A stretch of DNA of 32,000 nt from Microcystis aeruginosa NIES-843 (GCF_000010625.1 NC_010296.1:960001-992000), one strand, 5' to 3'; counted from the stretch's first letter, positions 2,424 to 16,864 are shown. Notes: generated from the letters alone by a model not told the origin. Numbers and translations are program-made.

Positions 2424-2449
2424 GGTGGGCATTGCCCACCTTAATTTTT
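2424..2449 (+). terminator. Rho-independent terminator after rpoC1 (possibly shared with convergent ridA)
   Basis: GGTGGGC-att-GCCCACC stem-loop followed by TTAATTTTT, 17 nt after the rpoC1 stop. Confidence 0.55.
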
Positions 2450-2837
2450 AGGCTAAAGCGGCAATACATTCTATTTCCACTAGCACATCTTTGGGAAGAC
2501 GGGCCACCTCCACACAGGCCCGGGCCGGGGCAGTTTCCGGGGGGAAATAACGGGCATAAACTTGATTCATCGCCCCGAAATTGGCTAAATCCGAGAGAAA
2601 GACGGTGGTTTTCACCACATTTGACCAATTAGCCCCAGCAGCGGTTAAAATGCCCTCTAGATTGGCCATAACTTGTTCGGTTTGGGTGCTAATTTCCCTG
2701 GAGACGATTTCACCCGTGACGGGATCTAGGGGAATTTGTCCCGCAACAAAGAGAAAAGGACCAGGAGCGGCGATCGCTTGATTATAGGGACCCACAGGGG
2801 CTGGAGCTTTATCAGTACGGATGACCTGATTATTCAT
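2448..2837 (-). CDS. ridA: RidA/YjgF/L-PSP family reactive-intermediate deaminase module (possible independent start at ATG 2837)
   Basis: [22 protein letters not shown]...VFLSDLANF...[20 protein letters not shown] is a full-length RidA. Host-like GC composition starts exactly at this ATG. Confidence 0.8.
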
Positions 2838-3332
2838 ATGACGTTGCAATTCTGCATCTAACTCTTTTAACAAACCATATATTTTATCAAAATCACGTTT
2901 AGTTTTAGAAGGAGCGTCATAAGTTCTCAAAGTACCTTTAGTATGAGTATGAGCCGCTCGATTGCGACTATCTTTTAGATTACCAAGATAACCTTTTAAA
3001 GCACTAATTTTACCAGTTTTTTCTAACTTTTTTTCGATTTTTTCTAATGTTGCTAAACCAATAACCATCATCAACATTTTTCTAAAAGGTTCATATTCAA
3101 AACTATGAGTACCACTAATAGTCTTATCGATGAATTTTTTGTTAGCTTCGGACTTTAAGCATCGTTTAGCACATCTTAAAACTATATCATCCATAGTTTC
3201 CTCGATCCAGCCACATAATTCTATAAGAGCTAGTTTGGAATAAGAAGAAGTTTTTTGATTATCAGCTGTAGGGTCATCATGGAGTTGATCAAGCCAGTTT
3301 AACGTCTTGAGTAAATAATCTTTAGTAATCAT
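2448..3332 (-). CDS. HEPN (RiboL-PSP-HEPN-like, Rx4H) - RidA/YjgF fusion ORF, 294 aa
   Basis: The N-terminal 165 aa are AT-rich and carry [12 protein letters not shown] (R-x4-H, Abi2/AbiD-like HEPN signature). The C-terminal 129 aa are RidA. There is no stop codon between the two parts. Confidence 0.7.
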
Positions 3333-4431
3333 TACCAGTAGATGAAAAAATTTTGATAGATGTATTAATTCTCTCTAAAGCCTTATCTTTTCGATACATA
3401 CCACTAGATAAATTTTCAGTTAAAAATGGTTCAGATTTTATTAATCTAGAATACTTGTCTTGTAATTCACCATTGGAGAGATTGACTAAAGTATCTAAAT
3501 TCTTGGCAACTCCTAAAAGAATTCCCTCAGCAATAACTTTACTGGTTTTGAGAGGTTCCTCTTTGAAGATTTTATCATAAATCAAGTCAACGGTTTGCTT
3601 AAATAATTCATCTTTATCTTGAATAAAATCTGCGTGAGCAAATCTATGTTTATACATATAATCATTTAAAAATCTGGTCAATTTCCCCTTGTAGTTCTGG
3701 TATTCATCATAAAAAGCAAAGAAACGAAGCACTAATTCTTCATCTCCAAATCGAGATGCTTTTTGCTGCTCTCGATCCATCAGCAAAAGCCAGTTTTCAT
3801 ATTGAGCGCATTCTTTTAAAAAACTATTAAACTTGCCATTATAGATACAATTTCTGATCTCCTGATTGTTAAGTTTTACTCCACCAGTATTTAAGCGATG
3901 GAAAATGGTAAAAATATAATTATTATGAGCTTTTTTGCTGGAGTCATAGCGAATCATGGTGATGGGAATAGTCATATTTTCTACGCGTTCATATAATTCT
4001 TCATGCTGAGTTTTTATTTCCTCAACTGTTCTTCCAGAAATAGACGAATCTACATCGGGTAATTTTGATAGCCTCCAATCTTCAGTAGTTAAAAATTTGA
4101 CGATGGTACTAATTCGTTGTAATCCATCGATGATATAGCGTTTATCTGTCTTATAGTCAAGACTAATACACATACTAGGAATCGGTAACTGTTTCATTAA
4201 ACTATCAATAAAACGAGTTTGTTGTGCCTCACTCCACACCACATCTCTTTGAAAATCTGGATCGATAACCAATTGTTTTTTTTTATACATTCTAACTAGA
4301 TCAGAGCAGGATCGCTGCTCATTGTAAGCAATAATATCCGCAGGAGGAAAATCCACATCATCTTCTTCCTCTAGATACTTTTCTTCTTCGGCTGCTAGTA
4401 ATTTCTCTTCTTGACTGAGATAATTAACCAT
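3322..4431 (-). CDS. DUF262 (ParB-like NTPase/nuclease superfamily, GmrSD N-terminal type) protein, 369 aa, with no recognisable DUF1524/HNH part
   Basis: Motifs [23 protein letters not shown] (DGQQR motif) and [18 protein letters not shown]. Strong SD (AGGAGGG) lies 8 nt upstream of ATG 4431. The 3' end overlaps the HEPN ORF start by 11 nt. Confidence 0.85.
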
Positions 4432-4706
4432 AATTTTTATCCCTCCTAATATTGCCAATTCAAAAATGAAACGCACGACTCCTTAAGAGTTGACAGACAA
4501 AGGATCATCAGGTACTGTCTGATCAATACAACAACAAATCAGACCCAAAAACGAAGCCACCAACATCTTAACATAGAACAAAGAAACTTGCTCTATCAAC
4601 TTGGTCAAGAGGGAAATTTATCTCAATGGCAAATGGCAGCTGGGATGTCATCAAAGCACGACCAAAGCGAGAATTAAGAAGGAATCAAGGTTCCCTCGGA
4701 TGCTAT

Positions 4707-5918
4707 CTACTGAAAATTGGTATCTTCATCGATTAAGTTAGCAATGCGAGCATAATAATCCAGTAATCCAGTGACAGGATAGCGGTCTGCTAGAGCGATC
4801 GAGGGAATATAAGGTATGATTAGATAGTCTTCTGAATCTATATCTAAATCATGATCGGTAGTTTCATCTATATCTATATTTTTGTCAATATCCTTTTGTA
4901 AAATTTGCCAAGCATGAGTAACTTTAGTTATTCCTGTATCACTTAAATCGGGAACAGGTGAAAAAACAAAATTAAGCGAAAGTCGGCCGAAAGAAGTCAA
5001 AGATTGCAAAAGAAGCTCGATTCCTTTTTGATTTTGTTCGTTAGGAAATAAAAAAATAATTGCTTCGTTGGCTGCCTGTAGTAAAGATAAAGCTCCCCAT
5101 TCATTGATTCCAGTACACGAATCTACTAAGATAAGATCAGGTTTTAACTGATTTTGAATCTCTCGACTAAAAGTTGACCAGAGTGTTTCCCCATTATCGA
5201 GAATTGTTGTTGCTCGCAGATCATCAACTTTAGCAATGTAATCAAGACTCAAATAACCCGCAGGAACAATAAATAGTCTTCCCGTTGCATCGGGAATATT
5301 AACTTCTCCAAATATTTTAGTGATATTAATCTTTGCTTCTACACCTTCTGGTAAATAGGATTTTTCATAAAAATAGTCCACAATTCCGTATTCCGGTAAG
5401 GGATTTAAGGGAAAAGCTGTGCTTAACCCCGGTGCTTCTAAATCCAAGTCAACAGCTACTACTTTACGACCTCGCATCGCTAAAATCCAAGCAACATGAA
5501 TTAAAGCAGTTGTCCTACCTACTCCCCCTTTAAAAGAATAAAAAGTTACGGTTCTAGGAAGACAAAGTTCGGGAGAAGACGGTGATTGATTTTGTGGATT
5601 AGCTGACCACAAGGCTAAATCTTGCCAAGTGTGAATTGATTTTGCGTCCAGAAGTTGTGGAGCTTTTAGATCGAGAGAGGCTGCCTCCTGAATAGTATAT
5701 AAAGATATAAAACCTAAAAATTTATGCTGTTGTTCTATGTCATTTGTAACTGCTTCTCTTCGCTGAGTTGTTGATAAATTTTCAAACTTATCACTGACGA
5801 TAGTTATATTCAAAAGTCCAGCAGTAGATACATTGAGATCAACCCATTCTTGTGCTTCTTTTTGAACATATATATCTGTTAATTTTTGTTTCAGTGATCT
5901 TAACCAAGTTTCTGACAT
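4707..5918 (-). CDS. KGGVGR-variant ParA/MinD (SIMIBI) P-loop ATPase with a BolA-like N-terminal domain, 403 aa
   Basis: Deviant Walker A FYSFKGGVGRTTAL, then VVAVDLDLEAPG and a Walker B-like LILVDSCTG. The N-terminal ~110 aa carry ITIVSDKFx7RR...LYTIQE, which resembles the BolA signature. Confidence 0.8.
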   Translation of the reverse strand: MSETWLRSLKQKLTDIYVQKEAQEWVDLNVSTAGLLNITIVSDKFENLSTTQRREAVTNDIEQQHKFLGFISLYTIQEAASLDLKAPQLLDAKSIHTWQDLALWSANPQNQSPSSPELCLPRTVTFYSFKGGVGRTTALIHVAWILAMRGRKVVAVDLDLEAPGLSTAFPLNPLPEYGIVDYFYEKSYLPEGVEAKINITKIFGEVNIPDATGRLFIVPAGYLSLDYIAKVDDLRATTILDNGETLWSTFSREIQNQLKPDLILVDSCTGINEWGALSLLQAANEAIIFLFPNEQNQKGIELLLQSLTSFGRLSLNFVFSPVPDLSDTGITKVTHAWQILQKDIDKNIDIDETTDHDLDIDSEDYLIIPYIPSIALADRYPVTGLLDYYARIANLIDEDTNFQ

Positions 5919-5928
5919 AAGTATCTCC

Positions 5929-6363
5929 TTAAAGTTGAGTAGCTTGTTTCTGAAGCCATTGTTTCAGACCTGTATAAGCTGATAACCACTCTTTGTATTT
6001 ATCGTCATTCGGTTCACTGCTGGAATAACGCATATCTATAAAATTTTGACTAGGATTTTCTACCGGTTTTTCTACTATATTAATCCATTTTATCACGTCT
6101 GGATAATTTTGAACTCTCGAATAGAGACGATTATTACTTTTTAGAGCAGCTGTCAAACTGTGACCCGGATTAGTTATGGTATGTCCGGGGTTATTGGACT
6201 TAGTTTTCCATTCTTGACTGGATACCGAAGCTAAGATCATAGATTTCAGCAAACATTCGATCGTAATACCTCCAAAGTGCATAGCAGCTATTTTCCTATT
6301 AGATTTACAAAGTATTTCTGTATCTTGATGACGTTGTAAAAAAGCTGATTGGTAATCTTCCAT
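5929..6363 (-). CDS. Small helical protein, tentatively HEPN-domain (KNTase/sacsin-type), 144 aa
   Basis: Helix pattern AAMHFGGITIECLLKSMIL ... GHSLTAALK ... DMRYSS resembles classic HEPN (xxAxExxLKAxL ... HDLxxL ... RY). It also has NRKIAAMH (R-x5-H). It lies 10 nt upstream of the ATPase gene. The function call is weak. Confidence 0.45.
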   Translation of the reverse strand: MEDYQSAFLQRHQDTEILCKSNRKIAAMHFGGITIECLLKSMILASVSSQEWKTKSNNPGHTITNPGHSLTAALKSNNRLYSRVQNYPDVIKWINIVEKPVENPSQNFIDMRYSSSEPNDDKYKEWLSAYTGLKQWLQKQATQL

Positions 6364-6424
6364 CCCTAATTATCTATTCGCTAGAGTCAATACCTGTGAA
6401 TAAGTTTTTAGCTGAGGATTAAAC

Positions 6425-6456
6425 AAGGGTACTTTATTAGACAATAAAGCACCCTT
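6425..6456 (-). terminator. Hairpin immediately after the ileS stop (possible terminator or island boundary)
   Basis: 14-bp stem with one mismatch (AAGGGTACTTTATT / AATAAAGCACCCTT) and a 4-nt loop, 10 nt downstream of the ileS stop. The U-tract on the minus strand is weak. Confidence 0.4.
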
Positions 6457-6466
6457 TTAATTTAGC

Positions 6467-9325
6467 TTAGAACTCTCCTTTTAAAGCGGCATTACAGCGC
6501 TCGCAAATAGTGGGATCATCGGCAAATTTTCCCACTTGAGTGGAATAATTCCAACAGCGATCGCATTTTTCGCCCTCTGCTTTGACAATTCCCACCGAAA
6601 CAAAGTCCGATTCTCCTTTATATTCTGCGGTTTGAATCGCGCTAATATCACTAACTAATTCCACTTGGGAAGAGAGAAATAGATAACGCAATTCATCAAC
6701 TTTATTCCCCGTTAAACTATCACAATTGTTGAATAATTCTAACTCCTGTTGTAAGCTTTCATCGGGAACATAAAGTAAAACTTTTGCCTCTAAAGAAGCA
6801 CCGATCGCTTTATCATTTCTGGCAGTTTCCATCACCTTATTAACTTCGGTGCGTAGCTGCCGGAATTTCGCCCATTTATCGGCCAATTCGCGATTATTCC
6901 AAGCAGGATCGATGTTTAGCCATCCTGACTCAAATACTGATAAATAAGGAGTTTTGTAGGGGAGAAATTGCCAGATATCTTCCGCTAGATGAGACAGGAC
7001 AGGAGCGATCGCTTTAGCGAGATTTTCTAAGGCAATAGCATAGACTGTTTGACAACTGCGACGACGGAAAGAATTAGGATCAGAAATATATAAACGATCC
7101 TTAGCGATGTCGATATAAAAGTTAGATAAATCGACAACACAAAAATTCTGTACCGTCTGGAAAAAGCGGAAAAATTGGAAACTTTCAAAAGCTGCCGTTA
7201 CTTCCGTAAACACCTCCGAGATACGATGTAACATATAGCGATCGATCTCCGGTAGATCTTCATAAGCTACCGCATCTTTAACGGGATCAAAATCATTTAA
7301 ACTCCCCAGTAAAAACCTGGCAGTATTACGGATTTTATTACGGATATCTACCAACTGTTTGAGAATATTTTGACCAATATTCACATCATTGGTATAGTCC
7401 ACCGAGGACACCCATAACCGAATCACATCTACCCCATAAGCGGGTTCTTTTTTCTGGTCTTTACCACCATTAATGATCACATTGGGATCGATGACATTCC
7501 CCAGAGATTTACTCATTTTTCGTCCCTGTTCATCCAAAACAAAACCGTGAGTTAACACCGTTTTATAGGGAGCAATACCATTAGCAGCGACACTGGTTAA
7601 TAAACTCGATTGAAACCATCCCCGATGCTGATCCGATCCTTCTAGATACATATCCGCAGGATAACTTAATTCTGGTCGAGCATTAGCCACCGCATTCCAA
7701 CTAGAACCAGAATCAAACCACACATCCATAGTATCCATTCCCTTGCGATAACTGCGACCATTATTGCGATAACTGGGAGGTAACAATTCCTCTACGGATA
7801 ACTCCCACCAAGCATTAGAACCCTTGACCCCAAAGATAGCTTGAACGTGATTAATCGTCTCCTCCGTTAACAGAGGTTCATTCGTTTCTTCGTCATAAAA
7901 AACAGGAATAGGAACCCCCCAACTGCGCTGACGAGAGATACACCAATCGCTTCTTTCACTAACCATAGAAGTGATACGATTCTTACCCGTTGCAGGAATC
8001 CAACGCACCGAATCAATTGCTTCTAAAGCTAATTCCCGGAATCCTTCCACGGAAGCAAACCATTGTTCCGTTGCGCGGAAAATTGTCGGTTTTTTGGTTC
8101 TCCAATCGTAGGGATATTTATGCTGATATGCTTCTTCTTTAAGTAACGCACCCTTTTCTGTCAGTGCTAAAATGATTGCTTCATTAGCATCTTTCAAGAC
8201 ATTTAAACCCGCAAATTGTCCCGCTTCTGCGGTGAAATTTCCCTTATCATCCACGGGAGAAAGTATCGGTAAACCGTAACGTTGACCGACGATATAATCC
8301 TCCTGACCATGGCCAGGGGCCGTATGAACTAATCCGGTACCAGAATCAGTGGTGACATAATCCCCACCGATGAGAATAGCACTTTCTCTGTCAAACAAAG
8401 GATGACGATATTTAGTATGTTCTAATTCCAGACCTTTAACCGTTGCTTTAATCGTCAAAGTCCTGTTAAAAGTGTCGGCCAATTTTTCGACTAAATCCGT
8501 CGCTACAATTAGATAATTAGACTCGCTAGTTTCCACCACTGAATAGTTTAATTCTGGGTTCAATGCGACGGCCAAATTCCCGGGTAAAGTCCAGGGAGTA
8601 GTCGTCCAGATAGCGACGGATAAATTAGGCAAAAATGGCCTTAAAACCGGGGTTGAAACTGACGTAATCGGAAAAGCAACATAGACACTGCGGGAAGTGT
8701 GACCTTCGGGATATTCTAATTCTGCCTCAGCTAAAGCGGTTTGAGAACTAGGACTCCAGTGAACCGGTTTTAGTCCCCGATAAATATAACCTTTCAGGGC
8801 CATTTTTCCGAATACGGCAATTTGAGCGGCCTCGTATTCCGGTTGTAGGGTTAAATAGGGATTTTCCCAGTCTCCCCAGACTCCATACCTTTTGAAACCT
8901 TCACACTGTTCTTTTTGCGTTTGAAGGGCAAAATCGTGGGCTTTCTGACGTAATTTCACAGGGGTTAGACCCTCTTTTTCCGAGCTTTTGAGACTTTGTA
9001 AAACCTTCAGTTCGATCGGCAACCCGTGACAATCCCAACCTGGCACATAGCGCACTTTGTAGCCTTGCAGCAGTTTATATTTATTGATAATGTCTTTGAG
9101 AATTTTATTTAAAGCATGACCGATATGCAGAGACCCGTTAGCGTAGGGTGGTCCATCGTGGAGAATAAATAATTCTTTGGGGTTATTTTGCGCTAATTTC
9201 TCATATATTTGCTCATCTTGCCAGAATTTCTGGATTTCTGGCTCACGTTTACTGGCATTTGCTCGCATATCAAAGTCAGTTTGGGGCAAATTAACGGTAT
9301 CTTTGTAACTTTTAGCGTTGGACAT
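6467..9325 (-). CDS. ileS: Isoleucine--tRNA ligase
   Basis: Class I signatures HIGHALN and KMSKS, a CP1 editing region, and a C-terminal Zn-finger (CDRCWNY...CERC). Length 952 aa. Confidence 0.97.
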   Translation of the reverse strand: MSNAKSYKDTVNLPQTDFDMRANASKREPEIQKFWQDEQIYEKLAQNNPKELFILHDGPPYANGSLHIGHALNKILKDIINKYKLLQGYKVRYVPGWDCHGLPIELKVLQSLKSSEKEGLTPVKLRQKAHDFALQTQKEQCEGFKRYGVWGDWENPYLTLQPEYEAAQIAVFGKMALKGYIYRGLKPVHWSPSSQTALAEAELEYPEGHTSRSVYVAFPITSVSTPVLRPFLPNLSVAIWTTTPWTLPGNLAVALNPELNYSVVETSESNYLIVATDLVEKLADTFNRTLTIKATVKGLELEHTKYRHPLFDRESAILIGGDYVTTDSGTGLVHTAPGHGQEDYIVGQRYGLPILSPVDDKGNFTAEAGQFAGLNVLKDANEAIILALTEKGALLKEEAYQHKYPYDWRTKKPTIFRATEQWFASVEGFRELALEAIDSVRWIPATGKNRITSMVSERSDWCISRQRSWGVPIPVFYDEETNEPLLTEETINHVQAIFGVKGSNAWWELSVEELLPPSYRNNGRSYRKGMDTMDVWFDSGSSWNAVANARPELSYPADMYLEGSDQHRGWFQSSLLTSVAANGIAPYKTVLTHGFVLDEQGRKMSKSLGNVIDPNVIINGGKDQKKEPAYGVDVIRLWVSSVDYTNDVNIGQNILKQLVDIRNKIRNTARFLLGSLNDFDPVKDAVAYEDLPEIDRYMLHRISEVFTEVTAAFESFQFFRFFQTVQNFCVVDLSNFYIDIAKDRLYISDPNSFRRRSCQTVYAIALENLAKAIAPVLSHLAEDIWQFLPYKTPYLSVFESGWLNIDPAWNNRELADKWAKFRQLRTEVNKVMETARNDKAIGASLEAKVLLYVPDESLQQELELFNNCDSLTGNKVDELRYLFLSSQVELVSDISAIQTAEYKGESDFVSVGIVKAEGEKCDRCWNYSTQVGKFADDPTICERCNAALKGEF

Positions 9326-9525
9326 TCTGGCAAACCTATGGATATCAATCGTTTTCGGGATTCATTCCTAAATAACGTCCCTTTGAGAGTCGTTATCTCT
9401 ATTCTGTCACATAATTGTAGTATAAGTATTACAAGTGACAATCATTGATCTATCAGTCTAGCGAGATTGAGTCCAAGAGCAATGATTCCGAAAGGCTATA
9501 ATTCAGTTATTCGAGAATAGGGAGC

Positions 9526-10107
9526 ATGAGGACCATGGTGACGAATCCTAATTTTTTTTATGTCTCTCCAGAAGTGTATCTAGAAGGGGAAAGAGTCAGT
9601 CCGATCAAGCACGAGTACCGAAAAGGACAGATTTATGCGATGGTAGGGGCAAAAAAGCCGCATATCGTTTTATCGGCCAATTTAGCCAAGGTTTTAGGCA
9701 ATCATCTCGATGATAGTCCCTGTCTTGTTCTCACTTCCGATATCAAAGTCCGGTTAGAGGAGGCAAATTGTTATTATTATCCCGATATTGCGGTGGTTTG
9801 TGACGAGAGAGAGATTAACAATACCGATGATTTTATTCTCTATCCCGTTCTGATTATTGAAGTATTATCGAAATCTACGGAATCCTTTGATAGGGGTGAT
9901 AAATTTAGCGATTATCAAACCTGTCCCACCTTAAAAGAATACATTCTTATCCATCAAAACCAGATGAAAATTGAATGTCACCGTCGCGAGGATTCGGGAA
10001 TCTGGAAAGAACAGATCTATGAAGCCGGGGATGCGGTAGAATTCACCACTGTAGGATTCCGGGGATCGATCGCTTCTATCTATCGCAAAGTCCCCGGTTT
10101 GGTATGA
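9526..10107 (+). CDS. Uma2 (DUF820) family PD-(D/E)XK-fold putative endonuclease, divergent paralog
   Basis: YPDIAVVC...LIIEVLSKST...D motif layout typical of the cyanobacterial Uma2 family. Confidence 0.85.
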   Translation: MRTMVTNPNFFYVSPEVYLEGERVSPIKHEYRKGQIYAMVGAKKPHIVLSANLAKVLGNHLDDSPCLVLTSDIKVRLEEANCYYYPDIAVVCDEREINNTDDFILYPVLIIEVLSKSTESFDRGDKFSDYQTCPTLKEYILIHQNQMKIECHRREDSGIWKEQIYEAGDAVEFTTVGFRGSIASIYRKVPGLV

Positions 10108-10266
10108 TTGCCATTCTTTCTTGACATCGCACTTTTATGTCTCTAGGGATAAGGGTAGATCTGTCTCCCTTTGCCTAAAAACCGAGATTATCAAGCATTT
10201 AATTCTATTTGTCAAACCTGTAGGAAGTTTTCCTTTTGGGTAGCTGTCCGTCAATACCAAATTAGG

Positions 10267-10484
10267 TTAGGGTCTGCTGAAAAAGTTTTTCCTAGGGGCA
10301 GGGTGTAGGGTGTGGGGTGTGGGGTGTGGGGTTTTACCGATTTTGAGGGGGTCAATTACCTAATTTTCAGGGAAAAAGTCCCTGAATTTACCCCTGATCA
10401 CTCCCATATCTGGTACTTTTTGAGGGGAAAAAAGTCCAAAAGTCTTATCCAACAAGGTTTTTAGATTTATTCAGCAACCCCTAA
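10267..10484. repeat. ~218-bp MITE-like repeat, copy 1 (second copy at 19950-20168)
   Basis: Near-colinear match to 19950-20168. Imperfect terminal inverted repeats (TTAGGGTCTGCTGAA... / ...TTCAGCAACCCCTAA). An internal GGGGTGT/AGGGTGT heptamer run is present. Confidence 0.65.
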
Positions 10485-10503
10485 TTACTGTCATAATATT
10501 TCT

Positions 10504-10547
10504 CAAAAAAAGAGGAGAAAAAAGCAAGTTCTGCCCTTCTCTCCTCC
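10504..10547 (-). terminator. Rho-independent terminator of the sugar-transferase gene
   Basis: On the minus strand, a GAGGAGAGAA...TTTTCTCCTC stem followed by a T8 run, about 55 nt after the stop at 10608. Confidence 0.6.
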
Positions 10548-10607
10548 AGTCTAGCGATTAATTACATTGAAACAGCAGTGAGTAATTTTTAATTACTATT
10601 CACCGCT

Positions 10608-11339
10608 TTAGTAAGCACCGTTATTTTTGGGAAAAACCACAACACCGATAGTTCTGAAGATTACCCAGATATCGGTTAACCAGTTACGCGAATTAACGTA
10701 ATACACATCCATCTGCACCCGCAGGGGATAGGGTATGTCATTACGTCCCGAAACTTGCCATAAACCAGTCAAACCGGGGCGAATAGTTAAAACTTTGTCG
10801 ATGCGATTGCCATATTTCTGCAATTCTTCGGGAACTAAAGGCCGCGGACCGACGACGCTCATATCTCCTCGCAGGACGTTCCAGAATTGGGGAAACTCGT
10901 CTAAACTGGTTAAGCGGAGAAACTTGCCAATCCAAGTTATACGGGGATCGTCCTTAAGCTTGAAATTATCCTCGAATTCCGCCCGCAGTTGGGGAGAGTC
11001 TTCCATCAGTCTCTCTAATACCTTATCCGCATCCATTACCATAGTACGGAATTTAATACAGTTGAAATGCTGGAAGTTTTGACCGACGCGCTTCTGCACA
11101 TAGAAGACCGGACCGGGGGAACTAATCGCGATCAATAAGGCTAAGATTAAATAAAGCGGCGAAAAGAAAATTAGAACCGATAGGGAGAAAACGATATCGA
11201 ATAATCGTTTTGAGGTATCGCCGTCTAAAGCTATTAACCAAGATTTTTGATGCCGTCTACCAGAGACCGAAGGTTTGAACCCTCGCTTCATCAAAGCTTG
11301 TAGAGCCTTGACGGAGATAAGTTGGCTATTAGCAGTCAT
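10608..11339 (-). CDS. Polyprenyl-phosphate glycosyl-1-phosphate transferase (bacterial sugar transferase family, WbaP/EpsL-like)
   Basis: [10 protein letters not shown]...[10 protein letters not shown]...FRTM...[21 protein letters not shown]...[13 protein letters not shown] is the canonical family core. Confidence 0.9.
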   Translation of the reverse strand: [243 protein letters not shown]

Positions 11340-11457
11340 CTTACTCCTTCACATCACACACACCACACAGTACCCATGATAAAGCCACAAGACCGAAAAA
11401 ACAAGTCTTCAGTCCAATGGCCATTTTAGAGCCTTTGTACTGAACAATCTCTAATTA

Positions 11458-11640
11458 GGGTTTGCGGCAAAAAGTTTGTTGGTGGGGTTAGGAGTCAGCA
11501 GTCAGCATTCAGGAGTCAGTAGTCAGAATTCAGGAGATTATTTTTATTTATTCTCCCCGCTCCCATCTCCCCCGCTCCCCGCTCCCCGCTCCCTTCTCCC
11601 CTGCTCTCCTATACCTTTTAAACAGGATTTAGTATTAAGC
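11458..11640. repeat. Composite heptamer-array repeat with a conserved 23-nt core (inverted copy at 31866-31888)
   Basis: Starts with the same TTAGGGTTTGCGGCAAAAAGTTT end as the 19950 MITE. It then has GTCAG-type heptamers, the core AGGAGATTATTTTTATTTATTCT (11532-11554), and CCCGCTC-type heptamers. Confidence 0.55.
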
Positions 11641-11708
11641 TAAGACGTATTTAAACCGCTTATTCTTAGATTAGCCGAATCTCCCCCCCTTGCCCTACCC
11701 CGACGTGG

Positions 11709-13127
11709 TAGGGTTGATTCATTTAAATTAAGTACAGCGGATTTTGAGTCAATAAATTTGAATGAAAATTCTCAAGTTTATCTTTTTCTAATCAAAAGAG
11801 TTAGTGACAATAACTAATCTTTAATCCTCTGCCAATATTGATTATGAATAAATTGATAAAGCTTGTTCCCAAGCCACTAAAAGCCTATCTCTCTTCAAAT
11901 TGTCTGAGAGTACATCCTGTTAATTTAGCTAATTTTTCTGCTTCTTACGTCGATAAAACTATCAGTTTTTCCCAACGTTCAGCTAACCACCTCTGTCCCT
12001 CTGTTATTGAGAGAAAACCCAAACCTCTGAAAAGATTCAATCCTATAGTTGTGAGAATTGACCAATTGCTGGCCGCTTGAAAATCACTTATCTCGCTTTT
12101 ATCTTCCTCAAAAATTACATCTTTTACCCAATGTAACTGATTTTCTATTTTCCAATGTCCTCGAATAATTTTAGCAAATACTTGGGCGGATTCGGTTAGG
12201 CTACTGATATAGTAAGCTGTTTCTTCATAAGTTTTATCCCCGCGACTACCCCTTCTTTCTACTTTAATAATTCGGCGCAGATTTTCAAACCCTTGTCTTT
12301 CATTTTTCCTCACTTTAAAAACTTCTATTTTTCTGGATATTTTTCGTCCATGACTATTGTCTTGTTCAAGAAAACAACTTTCTGGCTTTGAGGAATTACT
12401 CAGGTCTTGTATTCGCTTATAAAGATTTTTCTGATTTCCTTTAACGGTGATAACATAGTCATTTTTACTCTTGGCTATTAAGCTGATTGTTTTTTTCTGA
12501 CAGTGTAAAGCATCCCCAGTAAAAACTTTATTTTGAAGAGTGCAATCCTCAATTATAGCTTGACCTTCGTCGATTTCAGACCCTTTTTTGTTTTCAATTC
12601 TTTTTAAGTGTAATACCAAGCCACTTTCTTGACTAAACAATGAGACAAACATAATAAAATTTTCTTGTTCATTGTTAGGATTCTTTAGAGTGTTTTTGAG
12701 ACTTTTTCCATCTATGTCTAGCCAATTTATATCACTTCTTTGTCCATATTCTTGTAATGCCCATTCCTTAAACATTTTTAACAAAATCTGCCATTCAACT
12801 CCCATCATTACCCTTCTAATTGTTGAATAGGATGGGACTCTTTCTGGAATTATGTTAAATTCTTGACTGAGCCTGTGCCGATTATTTTTAGCAAACTCTC
12901 CTAGCTCTCTATAACCTGAGTATCCTAGCATTGTTCCCCGTATTATTACTACTAATACTATCCATAAAGGGTGTCTTTTTCCTTTATCTTTCCGAAAGTC
13001 CTTGACTTGTTTCAGTTTTTCTATTAAGCTCAACATATATTTGAAAAGTTGCCGGTCACTCCTCATTTTACAAAGACAGTGATCGCTTTTACTTTTGATA
13101 TTCTGATGGGAGAATGAAACAGCCCTA
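11709..13127 (-). mobile_element. ISAs1-family insertion sequence, 1419 bp, apparently intact
   Basis: 15-bp terminal inverted repeats TAGGGTTGATTCATT (11709-11723) and the reverse complement of 13113-13127, TAGGGCTGTTTCATT (13/15 match). A perfect 10-bp direct repeat CCCGACGTGG flanks it at 11699-11708 and 13128-13137. Confidence 0.8.
11945..13036 (-). CDS. ISAs1-family DDE transposase
   Basis: N-terminal KDFRKDKGKRHPLW and C-terminal RGHWKIENQLHWVKDVIFEEDKS are characteristic of ISAs1/H-repeat transposases. The start is placed at ATG 13036. The track's ORF extends to 13189, beyond the IS end, so that extension is spurious. Confidence 0.85.
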   Translation of the reverse strand: MLSLIEKLKQVKDFRKDKGKRHPLWIVLVVIIRGTMLGYSGYRELGEFAKNNRHRLSQEFNIIPERVPSYSTIRRVMMGVEWQILLKMFKEWALQEYGQRSDINWLDIDGKSLKNTLKNPNNEQENFIMFVSLFSQESGLVLHLKRIENKKGSEIDEGQAIIEDCTLQNKVFTGDALHCQKKTISLIAKSKNDYVITVKGNQKNLYKRIQDLSNSSKPESCFLEQDNSHGRKISRKIEVFKVRKNERQGFENLRRIIKVERRGSRGDKTYEETAYYISSLTESAQVFAKIIRGHWKIENQLHWVKDVIFEEDKSEISDFQAASNWSILTTIGLNLFRGLGFLSITEGQRWLAERWEKLIVLST

Positions 13128-13267
13128 CCCGACGTGGGGGTTGGGGGGTGTTGCCCTTTGCAAGAGTGCCTCTTGCCTCGTCTCAACAAGCAATTTAAAT
13201 TACGAACAGCTTATAGGACGTTTTTGAACCACCAAAAATTAATTATGCAAGAGGTTTAATAAATAAA

Positions 13268-13290
13268 AGGGCATCAGCAAATGATGCCCT
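13268..13290 (-). terminator. Rho-independent terminator downstream of the 13429-14220 gene
   Basis: 9-bp stem AGGGCATCA/TGATGCCCT with a 5-nt loop, followed on the minus strand by TTTTATTTATT. Confidence 0.5.
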
Positions 13291-13428
13291 GTGGCTGAAT
13301 ATTTAAGTAGTTACAGATTTAATCCTAAGGATGAAGTATGCTCTTGTGTGCGCTCGTCTCCTGACTCGGAGAATTCTGACTCCCGAAAACGAAAACTTTA
13401 TACTTCATCATTAAGATAAATCCCCTGC

Positions 13429-14220
13429 TTAGGCAGTGCGTTTTTTCATACTACCTAGTTCTCGAATGCCTAACCAACCGATCAAACTATAGCAAATCGA
13501 TAGCAACATACTTTGAATACCAATTCTTAACCACTGTTTCAAAGCCTCTAAGTTAGCTTGGCTTTCTGCCTGTTTTCGTCGATCTTGCAGCTGAGTTTGT
13601 AGCTGATTTTTGATCTCATCTAATCGCTGTTTAAACTCCTTCGGTTTTTTGGATAAATCCCGTAAATTAGTTAATTGTTCTCTTTGTTGGCGGAGGGTCT
13701 GTAACTGTTCCGTGTTGATCGGTTGTCCTTGGAAACGACCAGTTTCAATCACTTGAGTTCTCTGAGATATCTGCTGTTCTAATAGTTGGGGATTTTGCGA
13801 TAGAGTATTTAACTGGGCTAAGAAAGCCTGAATTTGTCCCTCTCCTTGGTCAACACCCTGTTCAATTTGAGTCAAAGCGTTGTTTTTAATCTGGTTGATA
13901 TTATTGATATGAACAGGAATCATCAACAGAAAAACTAAGCCTAACAGTGTGGAAAGAATAAAAATCGGCCAACGCAATTCAAAGCGGGATTTTCTAGGAA
14001 TGACATCTCTATTGTTAGCGTCAATCCAGTAAGCGATTAAAACGAGAACGATACCCAGGAGAGGAACAATTCCTCGATCGACAAAGGTGGTGACGAACCC
14101 TACCTGCCATTGGGATTGACTGAATCGATAGGGCAGCGGCAGGATAAACCCATCCAAAAGGAAGGAAATAATGAAAACCAATCCCGTTAATTTCAGGGAC
14201 AAAGAAGTAAAGCTGTTCAT
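13429..14220 (-). CDS. Membrane protein with Q-rich coiled-coil loop (possibly HpsJ-like; unsure)
   Basis: Three to four hydrophobic helices at the N-terminus and one at the C-terminus. A long Q/L-rich coiled coil lies between them. Confidence 0.65.
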   Translation of the reverse strand: MNSFTSLSLKLTGLVFIISFLLDGFILPLPYRFSQSQWQVGFVTTFVDRGIVPLLGIVLVLIAYWIDANNRDVIPRKSRFELRWPIFILSTLLGLVFLLMIPVHINNINQIKNNALTQIEQGVDQGEGQIQAFLAQLNTLSQNPQLLEQQISQRTQVIETGRFQGQPINTEQLQTLRQQREQLTNLRDLSKKPKEFKQRLDEIKNQLQTQLQDRRKQAESQANLEALKQWLRIGIQSMLLSICYSLIGWLGIRELGSMKKRTA

Positions 14221-14234
14221 CGAAAAAATGGGTC

Positions 14235-14272
14235 TGAAACCCCGCCCTTTAGCGATAGCGGAGGGCGGCTTT
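14235..14272 (+). repeat. Hairpin repeat of the TGAAACCCCGYCCT family at the IsrB 3' flank
   Basis: TGAAACCCCGCCCT-loop-AGGGCGGCTTT. Related copies are at 15557-15588 (opposite strand), 23062-23092, 25129-25146 (truncated) and 28250-28280. Confidence 0.6.
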
Positions 14273-14279
14273 ATATAAG

Positions 14280-15377
14280 TTAGTGAGAAACAATTAAACC
14301 GTTAGAACGACGGATTAACTGAATCTTGCTAACAGCTATCTGTCCCAATCGTTGACCATTGGTATCGCTTACAGATAGCTGTTTTTCGGTATCTCCACTG
14401 ACATAACCAATTCCTTTGGGAGAAGAAACTAAATCTCCTTTACGGAACCCATGTCCTGTGGTAGAGCCACCATATTTACGTCGTTTACCACCTTTAGAAA
14501 AAACCATCAGGTGAAGTTGACGACGACTAATAGGAGGACGTTTGATGACAGCAAAGGGAGCGTTTGTTACTTTAACAGAACCCTTCCAATCATATCCATG
14601 TCCATTATAATTGTGGAATGGCCAATAATCTAAAAATTGAAAACAGGCAAGAGCAATGCCATCGTTAGCATGGCTTTCTGGTGATTGTTCTGCTTTATTT
14701 TTGGACTTTTCTAGTCCCAAATATTTTCTGAGATTAGAGGTTTGCCAACCAAAGCGAGTATGGACTGTTGCCAATTGAGACAGTTGCTCAATTGCCCATT
14801 TCTGTCCGACCATAACCGACGAGAAACCTTTTCCAGACTTAGCTCCTTTTCTACCGGAAGTTAAATCAACATCGGCTTTGACATACTCAAAGTAAATGTC
14901 AGTAATTGGATAGATTTTGGTTAGTTCGGAAACGACGCGAAGTTCAAGTTGACGATTAGCTCTGATTGAGGGAGCTAATTTTCCTTGTTTTCTATTTGAG
15001 AATCGTTTTTGTCGATGCGCTCTTAGATTAAAAGAAAGTTGGCGGTTAATCCGTCTTTTTCTACGTCCTCTTCGCATTAACCGTCTATTGTCCAGGCGCT
15101 CTTTTACTCGTTTAAAAGGAAGTTCTAAGTGAGCCTTCCAAAGAGTAAAAAGAGAGGATTGAACGCCAATTCCAGAGAATAATTTACCCGGGTCAATACC
15201 AATAGCAATCGGTTGGGTTTTACTATCGGAAGGTTCATCGATTAGCTGGACATAGAAAATACCTAAGTCGTTGAATTTACCGATAGCTTTTCCTTCTTTA
15301 ATCCACCGTCTGGCCCGACTGGGTTTAGTGGGCATCAACGACTTTCCGTCTTTTGAGATAACAGGAACTCTTGCCAT
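14280..15377 (-). CDS. isrB: IsrB-like OMEGA RNA-guided nuclease (IscB relative lacking the HNH insert), 365 aa
   Basis: PLMP-type N-terminus (KSLMPTKPSRARRW), RuvC-I IGIDPGKLFSGIGV, Arg-rich bridge helix RRLMRRGRRKRRINRQ, RuvC-II IYFEYVKADV, RuvC-III ESHANDGIALA, and a C-terminal GFRKGDLV...GYVSG domain. There is no CxxC/HNH segment. An SD (AAGGA) precedes ATG 15377. Confidence 0.8.
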   Translation of the reverse strand: MARVPVISKDGKSLMPTKPSRARRWIKEGKAIGKFNDLGIFYVQLIDEPSDSKTQPIAIGIDPGKLFSGIGVQSSLFTLWKAHLELPFKRVKERLDNRRLMRRGRRKRRINRQLSFNLRAHRQKRFSNRKQGKLAPSIRANRQLELRVVSELTKIYPITDIYFEYVKADVDLTSGRKGAKSGKGFSSVMVGQKWAIEQLSQLATVHTRFGWQTSNLRKYLGLEKSKNKAEQSPESHANDGIALACFQFLDYWPFHNYNGHGYDWKGSVKVTNAPFAVIKRPPISRRQLHLMVFSKGGKRRKYGGSTTGHGFRKGDLVSSPKGIGYVSGDTEKQLSVSDTNGQRLGQIAVSKIQLIRRSNGLIVSH

Positions 15378-15690
15378 GGAGATAATCCTTAAGAGTAAAG
15401 TTAAAGTCCCTTTCCGCAACACAATCAAGATGTCTTGTCTAACAACGCTTTACCAATAAAGCTGAGAGGGAATCCGAACTAGGGAAGCATTCGGAAGTCT
15501 GTGCCAGATTGTGTCTCGATGCGGTAGTCTCTACTTGCGTCGCCTAAATTGGTCTAGGCAAGCTCCGTCCCTTTTAGGGCGGGGTTAGTGACTAGTCTGT
15601 TTAAAAGTTCTCGCTGGGGATTCCCAGAAGGATTTTGCCGAGAGGCACTCTGACAAACTGCAATTTCTAATTAACTCTCGCTCAACCCCC
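15378..15690 (-). ncRNA. Putative omega RNA of the IsrB locus (5' boundary uncertain)
   Basis: About 300 nt of ORF-free sequence directly upstream of isrB carries several hairpins (CTGGGAATCCCCAG; CCCCGCCCTAAAAGGGACGG; TCCGAA...TTCGGA). The position matches the known IscB/IsrB locus layout. Confidence 0.45.
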
Positions 15691-15986
15691 CGCTAAACCC
15701 TATGTCAAATCGTTCTGCTTGTCAACCCCTTTCGAGAATCGACTCTAGAAATATTACCTCAATATGGCATCGGTAAACTTATCCCTGTTAAAGAATAGAT
15801 CTCCTGCAAAAATCAAAAATCTGCCGTTAGGCGAGGAGACGGTCGATAGGAGACGGTCGTCAGGAGGAGAAAAAAGACAATAGACAACTATAATATCGAT
15901 AAAACCTAATATTATGTCAAATTTATCCATTTTTTTAGATATTTTAACCCGATAGTGCCTCGATAACTTACTTTTGCAGCAGGTCT

Positions 15987-16087
15987 AATAAAATTTTCCC
16001 AAGCTCTCAGACGAGGTTTTCCCCCCGTATCTCTTACCTAAGACAGAGGCTGTCAAAGAATAAAATTTTCCCAAGCTCTCAGATGAG
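15987..16087 (+). repeat. Two 29-nt direct repeats (1 mismatch), period 72 nt, upstream of pgl
   Basis: AATAAAATTTTCCCAAGCTCTCAGA(C/T)GAG at 15987-16015 and 16059-16087. Confidence 0.7.
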
Positions 16088-16141
16088 TCCTGAATGGTTA
16101 GCCTATAGTAAAGACAGCCCCCTGAGTTGATAACAAAACCC

Positions 16142-16864
16142 ATGCAGAAATTGGTGGAAGTTTTAGCTGATAAACAAGCTCTGATCGCAAAATCTCTGGC
16201 GCTGGTTCTGGAAAAAATCACAACCAGCCTCGACCAACAGGACTATTTTACCATCGCTCTGTCCGGCGGTAGTACCCCGAAACCTCTCTACGAAGCTTTA
16301 TCCTCTCAACCCCTCGACTGGTCAAAAATTCACGTTTTCTGGGGAGATGAGCGCTACGTTAGTCCCGATCATCCTGACAGTAATCAACGCATGGCCCGGT
16401 TAGCATGGCTCGATCGCATACCGATCCCAGCCGCTAATATTCATCCTGTGCCCACGGATGACCCCGATCCCCAGCTGGCCGCCCAAAAATACGATGATCA
16501 TCTCCGCCAATGGTTTGGGGTCAATTCTCCCGATTTTCCCGTTTTTGACCTGATTTTATTGGGAATGGGCGATGATGGTCACACCGCCTCTCTCTTTCCC
16601 CACACGGCAGCTTTAACGGTGAGCGATCGCTGTATCACCGTCGGCGAGAAAGACGGCAATCCCCGCTTAACTTTTACCGTTCCCCTGATCAATCAGGCCC
16701 GTTGTGTGATCTTTATCGCTGCCGGCGAAAGTAAACGCCCCGCTCTACATGAGATTTTCTCTGCCTATGGTGACTCTTTCTCCTATCCTTCCCGTCTCAT
16801 CCACCCCTCGGCCGGGGAATTATATTGGTTGCTCGATGCGGCCGCTGGTTCCTCTTTTGTCTAG
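16142..16864 (+). CDS. pgl: 6-phosphogluconolactonase
   Basis: LSGGSTPKPLYEAL, WGDERYV and GMGDDGHTASLFP motifs. ATG 16142 is preferred over the track's TTG at 16127. Confidence 0.9.
   Translation: MQKLVEVLADKQALIAKSLALVLEKITTSLDQQDYFTIALSGGSTPKPLYEALSSQPLDWSKIHVFWGDERYVSPDHPDSNQRMARLAWLDRIPIPAANIHPVPTDDPDPQLAAQKYDDHLRQWFGVNSPDFPVFDLILLGMGDDGHTASLFPHTAALTVSDRCITVGEKDGNPRLTFTVPLINQARCVIFIAAGESKRPALHEIFSAYGDSFSYPSRLIHPSAGELYWLLDAAAGSSFV

Follow-up and report, generated by a model that had tools for sequence, protein, structure and literature searches.

The ileS–ridA locus of Microcystis aeruginosa NIES-843 probably carries two independent modules, a PD-T4-2 system fused to RidA and a truncated PDC-M28 remnant

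We have analysed a 32-kb stretch of DNA from Microcystis aeruginosa NIES-843, referred to below as the window, and in particular the variable stretch at 2838-6466, which lies between ileS and ridA and carries four genes on the minus strand. The original prediction saw in these genes a single undescribed conflict system, composed of two mirrored pairs of a nucleoside triphosphatase (NTPase) and a HEPN ribonuclease (RNase). Profile searches and comparison with other ileS loci point elsewhere: the stretch is very probably hotspot cargo made up of two independent modules, a complete PD-T4-2 system whose HEPN gene is fused to ridA, and a truncated remnant of PDC-M28. The component systems are already catalogued, and there is no new four-gene system. 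The defence flavour of the prediction and its domain assignments are upheld; the integrated system is not, since one half is the named PD-T4-2 and the other the catalogued PDC-M28, and each pair occurs alone. The mirrored look of the four genes, which had been read as design, would be a historical accident, the by-product of a single recombination event in which the ATPase gene was cut.

The four open reading frames (ORFs) encode a HEPN-like protein of 144 residues (5929-6363, minus strand), a KGGVGR ParA/MinD-type ATPase of 403 residues (4707-5918, minus), a DUF262/ParB-like NTPase of 369 residues (3322-4431, minus) and a HEPN protein whose gene starts at 3332 (minus). They are exact matches to BAG00937, BAG00936, BAG00935 and BAG00934, respectively. 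Strand, coordinates, the 10-nt gap between the first two genes, the 11-nt overlap between the last two and the ORF-poor spacer between the halves (about 275 nt) are all as first described. What had been taken for a separate HEPN ORF of 165 residues has no stop codon at 2838, however, and proves to be the N-terminal part of a 294-residue ORF (2448-3332) that runs on into ridA. Profile searches of PADLOC, Pfam and NCBIfam support the DUF262, KGGVGR and RiboL-PSP-HEPN calls, and the 144-residue protein is HEPN-like by predicted fold only.

The half adjoining ridA matches the models of PD-T4-2 end to end. The 369-residue protein, PD-T4-2_A, aligns with its PADLOC model (PDLC04027) with an E-value of 2.9e-159, residues 24-378 falling on model positions 7-362/363. 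It contains the motif DGLQR, and its sole Pfam match is to GmrSD_N (1.7e-25), with no DUF1524/HNH domain detected by Pfam. The ribosome-binding site of this gene, AGGAGGG, and the ATG at 4431 are kept in loci L001 and L087; an alternative GTG start at 4476 is unsupported, homology with these two loci starting only at 4452. Immediately downstream, overlapping on the same strand, is PD-T4-2_B, the RiboL-PSP-HEPN domain (residues 1-165 of the fusion ORF; 2838-3332, minus). It matches Pfam PF18735 at 1.2e-6 (29.0 bits, cutoff 28.4) and PADLOC PD-T4-2_B models at 1.5e-208, 3e-64 (a model of 168 positions) and 4e-31. The model giving 1.5e-208 has 294 positions and covers the entire HEPN–RidA chimera, which suggests to us that PADLOC already includes the fused Microcystis protein. 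The Rx4H motif S-R123-N-R-A-A-H128 (SRNRAAH) is intact; H128 is invariant in nine of nine aligned sequences, and R123 is kept in all but L011, where it is replaced by serine.

The original prediction had remarked that the DUF262 protein is missing a DUF1524/HNH nuclease and has a HEPN gene downstream instead, and both observations hold. We conclude from the profile matches that the pair is a complete PD-T4-2 system. PD-T4-2 was found in Escherichia coli ECOR65 and blocks T4 both natively and in K12 (PMC9519451); reviews give its content as DUF262 plus PF18735 (PMC10952713; PMC12065111). The system described by Vassallo et al. (2022) has the same two-gene make-up, a DUF262 protein without DUF1524 followed by a PF18735 protein with Rx4H. 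The NIES-843 copy differs in its cyanobacterial host and in its HEPN gene, which is fused in frame to ridA via a 160-bp deletion.

Better-studied DUF262 systems suggest how the pair would act. By analogy with GmrSD, BrxU, SspE and Menshen, the DUF262 protein would detect phage DNA or a nucleotide cue by means of an NTP-dependent switch; the switch would then license a HEPN dimer to cleave RNA, halting phage replication. The 11-nt overlap couples the NTPase gene translationally to that of the RNase. GmrSD, BrxU and SspE share the N-terminal DUF262 NTPase domain, their DGQQR-type motif corresponding to DGLQR here. Unlike them, the present protein has no DUF1524/HNH domain; because the nuclease is a separate HEPN RNase, the target is likely to be RNA rather than modified DNA. 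Homology to NsnA of Menshen (NsnABC) extends over the full length of the protein (PADLOC NsnA, 8.1e-61), taking in the ParB-DUF262 domain and, in the C-terminal region, the ParBDB DNA-binding region, and we infer that the C-terminal region binds DNA. The logic of a sensor coupled to an RNase effector is also common to the two systems, whereas the NsnB ABC ATPase and the inPIN/BECR protein NsnC are absent here and the effector is a small HEPN protein.

Within Microcystis the ratio of nonsynonymous to synonymous divergence (pN/pS) of the HEPN gene is 1.0-2.45, never significantly above 1 (Fisher p ≥ 0.14), and we make no claim of diversifying selection; over longer distances the ratio is 0.25-0.43. 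A tblastn search of plasmids with the DUF262 protein gave relatives that are all below 31% identity. At the two plasmid loci inspected, from an E. coli IncF plasmid and from Hymenobacter, a DUF262 gene is followed by one for a small protein; that of the E. coli plasmid has the Rx4H-like sequence SRHAFAH. These pairs were rejected as PD-T4-2, the A proteins scoring better as NsnA and the B proteins having no PD-T4-2_B match. Their sequences show that the architecture of DUF262 plus small protein is a general one, here represented by a different family.

The half adjoining ileS is related to PDC-M28, a PADLOC candidate system (Payne et al., 2024 preprint); the PDC systems are 145 candidates nominated by "guilt-by-embedding" and untested (bioRxiv 10.1101/2024.01.29.577857). 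The 403-residue protein corresponds to PDC-M28B (PDLC04559; 2.3e-40, model of 438 positions) and matches the NCBIfam family AAA_KGGVGR (NF047398) at 3.9e-49, its 167.6 bits well exceeding the cutoff of 90. Its top fold matches are to Soj, ParA and MinD (Foldseek E of about 1e-4). It shares with these deviant Walker-A ATPases their fold and the KGG signature, and departs from them in the replacement of the P-loop lysine by arginine (KGGVGRT), in an extra N-terminal α/β domain of about 118 residues and, in full-length homologues, in the addition of a second P-loop ATPase. Residues 1-118 gave only a sub-threshold match to BolA (Pfam E = 0.099), and the N-terminal domain is modelled with an α-β-β-α-β-α topology. 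Some homologues of the ATPase are named "stress-induced morphogen" by JGI.

The 144-residue protein is a homologue of PDC-M28A (PDLC04558), with a partial match of 2.6e-8 over residues 2-71; its Planktothrix orthologue matches nearly the full model at 4.7e-9, and that of Nostoc gives 1.5e-6. It has no match in Pfam, the HEPN families included, or in NCBIfam, and a sequence search of the PDB with a profile of the family returned nothing significant. Its AlphaFold2 model (mean predicted local distance difference test score 75.9) has HEPN proteins as best PDB fold matches in Foldseek, namely 4nqf, 1ufb, sacsin, AF_0298 and Csm6, with probabilities of up to 0.99 and template modelling scores of 0.57-0.65, but with E-values of 0.15 or higher (0.15-0.24 for 4nqf and 1ufb). 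The invariant residues are R23, H29, E36, H61, H68 and R112-Y113. The canonical C-terminal Rx4-6H motif is absent, no histidine following the conserved R112-Y113; an invariant R23-x5-H29 lies instead near the N-terminus, in the second helix. The model suggests the same small all-helical fold as the minimal HEPN of HEPN-MNT (HepT/MntA; PDB 4nqf, 1ufb), from which the protein differs in having no MNT partner, no C-terminal Rx4-6H and its R23-x5-H29 in the second helix.

Comparison with other genomes indicates that the ATPase has lost its C-terminal half. At three allelic Microcystis loci (L006, L007 and L009), the gene codes for 885 residues, B plus C; the C half of this protein matches PDC-M28C (PDLC04561) at 9.9e-31 and the Sll1717-family P-loop ATPase model (NF047389) at 1e-43. 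The best 120 homologues across the cyanobacteria are 860-904 residues in length, and those outside the Microcystis cluster are 61-71% identical. Upstream of the long gene in Planktothrix, Synechococcus PCC 7502 and Nostoc, in unrelated neighbourhoods, lies a gene for a partner of 143-146 residues, and the short intergenic gap of 10-12 nt is kept. We conclude, by comparison of these loci, that the native PDC-M28 unit of cyanobacteria is a 144-residue gene plus a gene of about 890 residues, in which B and C form one polypeptide rather than two genes. A tblastn search of the window for the C half gave nothing below E = 2.6. The breakpoint lies at 4716/4715, after ...IDEDTN, and a stop follows two codons beyond. 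In all six four-gene loci from genomes, the ATPase ends in ...IDEDTNFQ*, which argues for one truncation event, and the pair in the window is, on this alignment, A plus B of PDC-M28 with C deleted. A PDB search with the C half of the long ATPase gave no significant match, and literature searches on KGGVGR, PDC-M28 and sll1717 found no papers in the collection searched.

The spacer (4432-4715, minus) accounts for the other side of the breakpoint. Most of its sequence, with a 68-nt internal stretch missing, is found upstream of the DUF262 gene in L094 and L098, both of which have no KGGVGR gene; the spacer is what natively lies upstream of the PD-T4-2 cassette. The four-gene junction follows a full-length ATPase gene on its left and the PD-T4-2 upstream region, as in L094 and L098, on its right; at the junction the two parents share an 8-nt microhomology, ATACCAAT. 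One microhomology-mediated recombination at ATACCAAT would have linked the ATPase gene, cut at the boundary of B and C, to the PD-T4-2 upstream region, deleting the C half and bringing in the spacer in the same step. Consensus scans of the spacer gave a weak terminator-like hairpin at 4697-4678 and promoter-like hexamers at 4599-4570 and 4458-4430. Its folding is not unusual (z = −0.61), its small ORFs are not credible, and an Rfam scan of the whole window gave no match.

To see how the two modules are distributed, we classified 26 Microcystis-type ileS loci from genomes and metagenomes by their cargo between ileS and ridA. The four-gene form is present in 13. PD-T4-2 directly follows ileS in six, a BanI-like restriction–modification (R-M) system accompanies PD-T4-2 in two (L094 and L098), full PDC-M28 occurs by itself in three (L006, L007 and L009) and an R-M system by itself in two (L004 and L005). 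The two pairs, to judge from these counts, assort independently, and PD-T4-2 also takes another left-hand partner. Loci with PD-T4-2 directly after ileS comprise L001, L087, L085 and four metagenome loci; L085 is from outside Microcystis, and there PD-T4-2 stands alone next to ileS. Outside the genus PDC-M28 without PD-T4-2 is found in Planktothrix, Synechococcus PCC 7502 and Nostoc. Co-occurrence of the four families, by contrast, was met solely in Microcystis, solely at the ileS–ridA locus and with one shared junction in all copies.

The edges of the variable cargo are sharp. Homology to all Microcystis haplotypes, among them L001 and L004 with neither the 144-residue gene nor the ATPase gene, stops at 6425, just past the terminator hairpin of ileS, and picks up again either at the ridA start codon or some 160 nt upstream. 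The conserved ileS 3′ flank with this terminator-like hairpin (AAAGGGTGCTTTATT...AATAAAGTACCCTT; 6425-6466, minus) thus forms the left edge of the hotspot, at 6424/6425. Several copies of the cargo are decayed: the catalytic arginine of the HEPN motif is lost in L011 (SSNRAAH; 10001-10504), the HEPN gene is frameshifted in L010 (6948-7432), L096 and L102, in L106 the DUF262 gene is broken into three, and an internal deletion affects the KGGVGR gene of L101. The locus is a compact defence hotspot of Microcystis, a bloom-forming genus, with at least five cargo states shuffled by recombination, and could be used in strain-level studies of phage resistance.

In the metagenome Microcystis loci L094 (2620-6000) and L098 (2721-6000), the R-M system, BanI-like type II, is placed between ileS and PD-T4-2 and comprises a restriction endonuclease of 343/366 residues and an N6/N4 methyltransferase of 588 residues. 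Past the methyltransferase gene there are a remnant of the 3′ end of the HEPN_B gene (GAATTGCAACGTCATAAATGTTGA) and a second copy of the segment upstream of ridA. This duplicated segment could mediate loss of PD-T4-2, leaving an R-M system alone as in L004 and L005.

The composition of the island had been taken as a sign of horizontal acquisition, and that it is AT-rich is borne out. Its G+C content (GC) is 0.346, compared with 0.441 for the remainder of the window, and no other 3.6-kb stretch of the 32 kb is lower; GC at third codon positions (GC3) is 0.21-0.27, as against 0.37-0.52 in the flanking genes. The cargo is also present or absent depending on the strain. The highly iterated palindrome 1 (HIP1), reported as lacking, is indeed not found between 2777 and 6557. 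About 1.9 sites would be expected in the island, however, so that its absence is not significant (Poisson P(0) = 0.15) and says little of foreign origin. HIP1 sites are spaced too irregularly across the window to serve as a marker of foreign DNA; at 7005-16623 there is a HIP1-free gap of 9.6 kb, exceeding that over the island.

Recent import nevertheless seems to us unlikely, and doubtful for PD-T4-2 in particular. PD-T4-2 lies directly downstream of ileS also in L087 and L085, whose IleS proteins are 95% and 81% identical, respectively, and the junction from ileS to the ribosome-binding site is identical in L001 and L087. Synonymous divergence (pS) of the cassette tracks that of ileS, with values of 0.34 and 0.40 for the PD-T4-2 genes when ileS gives 0.27, and of 0.67 and 0.62 when ileS gives 0.71. 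The L085 cassette is as strongly AT-rich relative to its host, with a GC of 0.25-0.27 compared with 0.40 for ileS. No close relatives of the DUF262 and KGGVGR proteins turned up in viral contigs. On these sequence comparisons, PD-T4-2 is more likely to have resided here for long and to have been lost repeatedly than to have been imported recently; it may also have been re-inserted at the same site. The low GC of such cassettes can evidently last long and is, taken alone, no evidence of recent transfer.

The fusion of the HEPN domain to RidA is best explained by a local deletion. The 294-residue frame at 2448-3332 is uninterrupted, and in GenBank it is likewise a single protein, BAG00934. Its second half (residues 166-294; 2448-2837, minus) is a housekeeping RidA domain, which scores 160.7 bits against TIGR00004 over residues 169-292 (cutoff 106.25) and 1.9e-43 against Pfam Ribonuc_L-PSP, and which is 96-99% identical to the unfused RidA of other Microcystis. 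Composition changes within the ORF, stepping at 2837/2838 from a GC of 0.319 (GC3 0.206) in the HEPN part to 0.508 in the RidA part. Unfused alleles end in ...QRHKC* and are followed by about 155 nt of native ridA upstream sequence, then by the ridA ATG; the same upstream sequence is common to loci without PD-T4-2. Alignment with five unfused alleles and two PD-T4-2-free loci reveals that precisely these 160 nt are missing from the window and L001. Loss of the HEPN stop codon, together with the 160 bp of native sequence preceding ridA, is what has fused HEPN and RidA. The promoter region of ridA went with the deletion; transcription must now reach ridA from upstream, the simplest source being the defence operon, and the retained ATG may still yield free RidA.

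Fusions of this kind have a history. Anantharaman et al. (2013; PMC3710099) named the family "Ribo L-PSP-HEPN" from the fused protein gi 166363853, cited a second fusion from Microcystis aeruginosa, gi 389884779, and inferred cooperative cleavage of mRNA; the two gi numbers could not be mapped to the fusion protein of the window. On that proposal the chimera would be an adaptive bifunctional protein, its two RNase-type domains cooperating on mRNA, or, in a variant, trimerisation of RidA would regulate the HEPN RNase. The fused ORF is intact, with Rx4H kept, and it occurs in several strains and assemblies: NIES-843, FBCC-A1114, NIES-4285 and a UniRef entry spanning 15 Microcystis taxa. Proteins with both HEPN and RidA are all at least 95% identical, however, which indicates one recent event; the junction is fused in only two of the 18 loci where it is visible; and none of the best 150 of 568 family representatives is of fusion length, their lengths being 80-227 residues and mostly 160-175. 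The RidA half is moreover an ordinary housekeeping gene in its usual place and of host GC, and RidA is now seen as an imine deaminase rather than an RNase (NCBIfam TIGR00004 name). We therefore regard joint action of the two halves as quite improbable. The alignments point to a local accident that puts ridA under upstream transcription.

Both the name RiboL-PSP-HEPN (PF18735) and the 2013 idea of joint action with an L-PSP "endoribonuclease" are based on such a fusion from Microcystis aeruginosa. The one in the window is the outcome of a 160-bp deletion, restricted to one lineage, that has joined a defence gene to the housekeeping ridA beside it. Annotation pipelines label the chimera "Rid family detoxifying hydrolase", so that the RNase half is overlooked. 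In many filamentous cyanobacteria (Nostoc, Microcoleus, Calothrix and Okeania), RidA is fused to pentapeptide-repeat domains, and RidA evidently tolerates fusions in the phylum.

Several observations weigh against the reading of the stretch as two unconnected modules, one of them a remnant. The four-gene form is the commonest haplotype sampled (13/26). The ORF of the truncated ATPase is intact in six of six genome copies and is not decaying; its pN/pS is 0.20-0.45, significantly below 1 in several pairs (L002-L008, p = 5.5e-7); and the cut coincides exactly with the boundary of two domains. The truncated ATPase still looks constrained and may retain a function, which the accident does not explain. 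As to the systems themselves, PDC-M28 is only a candidate defence system, and its conservation (61-71% identity across cyanobacterial orders, with housekeeping neighbours) is atypical of defence. Phage defence by the PD-T4-2 copy of NIES-843 is putative, and support for its presumed mechanism, a sensor gating a HEPN RNase, comes from relatives. At L081 (5556-8688), L082 (5559-8664) and L083 (5548-8667), the pair of 144-residue and approximately 890-residue genes lies amid groEL, urease and aldo-keto reductase genes, not in defence islands; conservation of this degree is unusual in a candidate for defence, and the pair may play a cellular role.

The frequency of the haplotype, the intact ORF, its low pN/pS and the place of the cut speak for a reading in which the truncated ATPase and its 144-residue partner are still functional, either as a minimal self-sufficient module or in a cooperation of the ParA–ParB type with the DUF262–HEPN pair. 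Cutting at the B|C boundary does leave a full PDC-M28B-like module, and there is precedent for ParB proteins regulating ParA or SMC ATPases (PMC12065111). The low pN/pS, however, could have been imported, recombination with full-length alleles bringing in variation already filtered by selection. Strains of the L001 type, with the same fused HEPN–RidA allele as the window, do without the pair; the ATPase gene of L101 has its internal deletion; no ParA-like gene lies beside PD-T4-2 in L085 or L087, or beside the plasmid DUF262–HEPN pairs; and the signature lysine of the P-loop has given way to arginine. We consider a functional truncated pair very unlikely. Were it so, a chance recombination would have made a working composite defence system unlike either parent.

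That all four genes form one integrated conflict system, two mirrored pairs of NTPase switch and HEPN RNase acting together, is the least probable reading and scarcely credible: the genes do lie close together on one strand in half of the sampled loci, with two HEPN-like small proteins and two predicted NTPases, but each pair is found alone at the ileS–ridA locus and in other genera, PD-T4-2 can have an R-M system rather than the ATPase pair as its neighbour and defends E. coli alone (PMC9519451), a single shared recombination junction truncates the ATPase, and a spacer with terminator-like and promoter-like sites parts the halves.

Elsewhere in the window, a Uma2-family gene (9526-10107, plus strand), with a putative restriction endonuclease fold, lies divergently beside ileS. 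It is present in 10 of 11 Microcystis genome loci; it is split in L005 and was not detected in L008, where enough upstream sequence is available. A gene at 14280-15428 (minus) encodes a 382-residue protein with an RRXRR domain (PF14239, 4.5e-52), adjoined by an ORF of 263 residues (13429-14220) with no Pfam match. A second AT-rich patch, with a GC of 0.32-0.36, coincides with a gene for a 414-residue insertion sequence-type DDE transposase (DDE_Tnp_1 plus DDE_Tnp_1_assoc) at 11945-13189 (minus).

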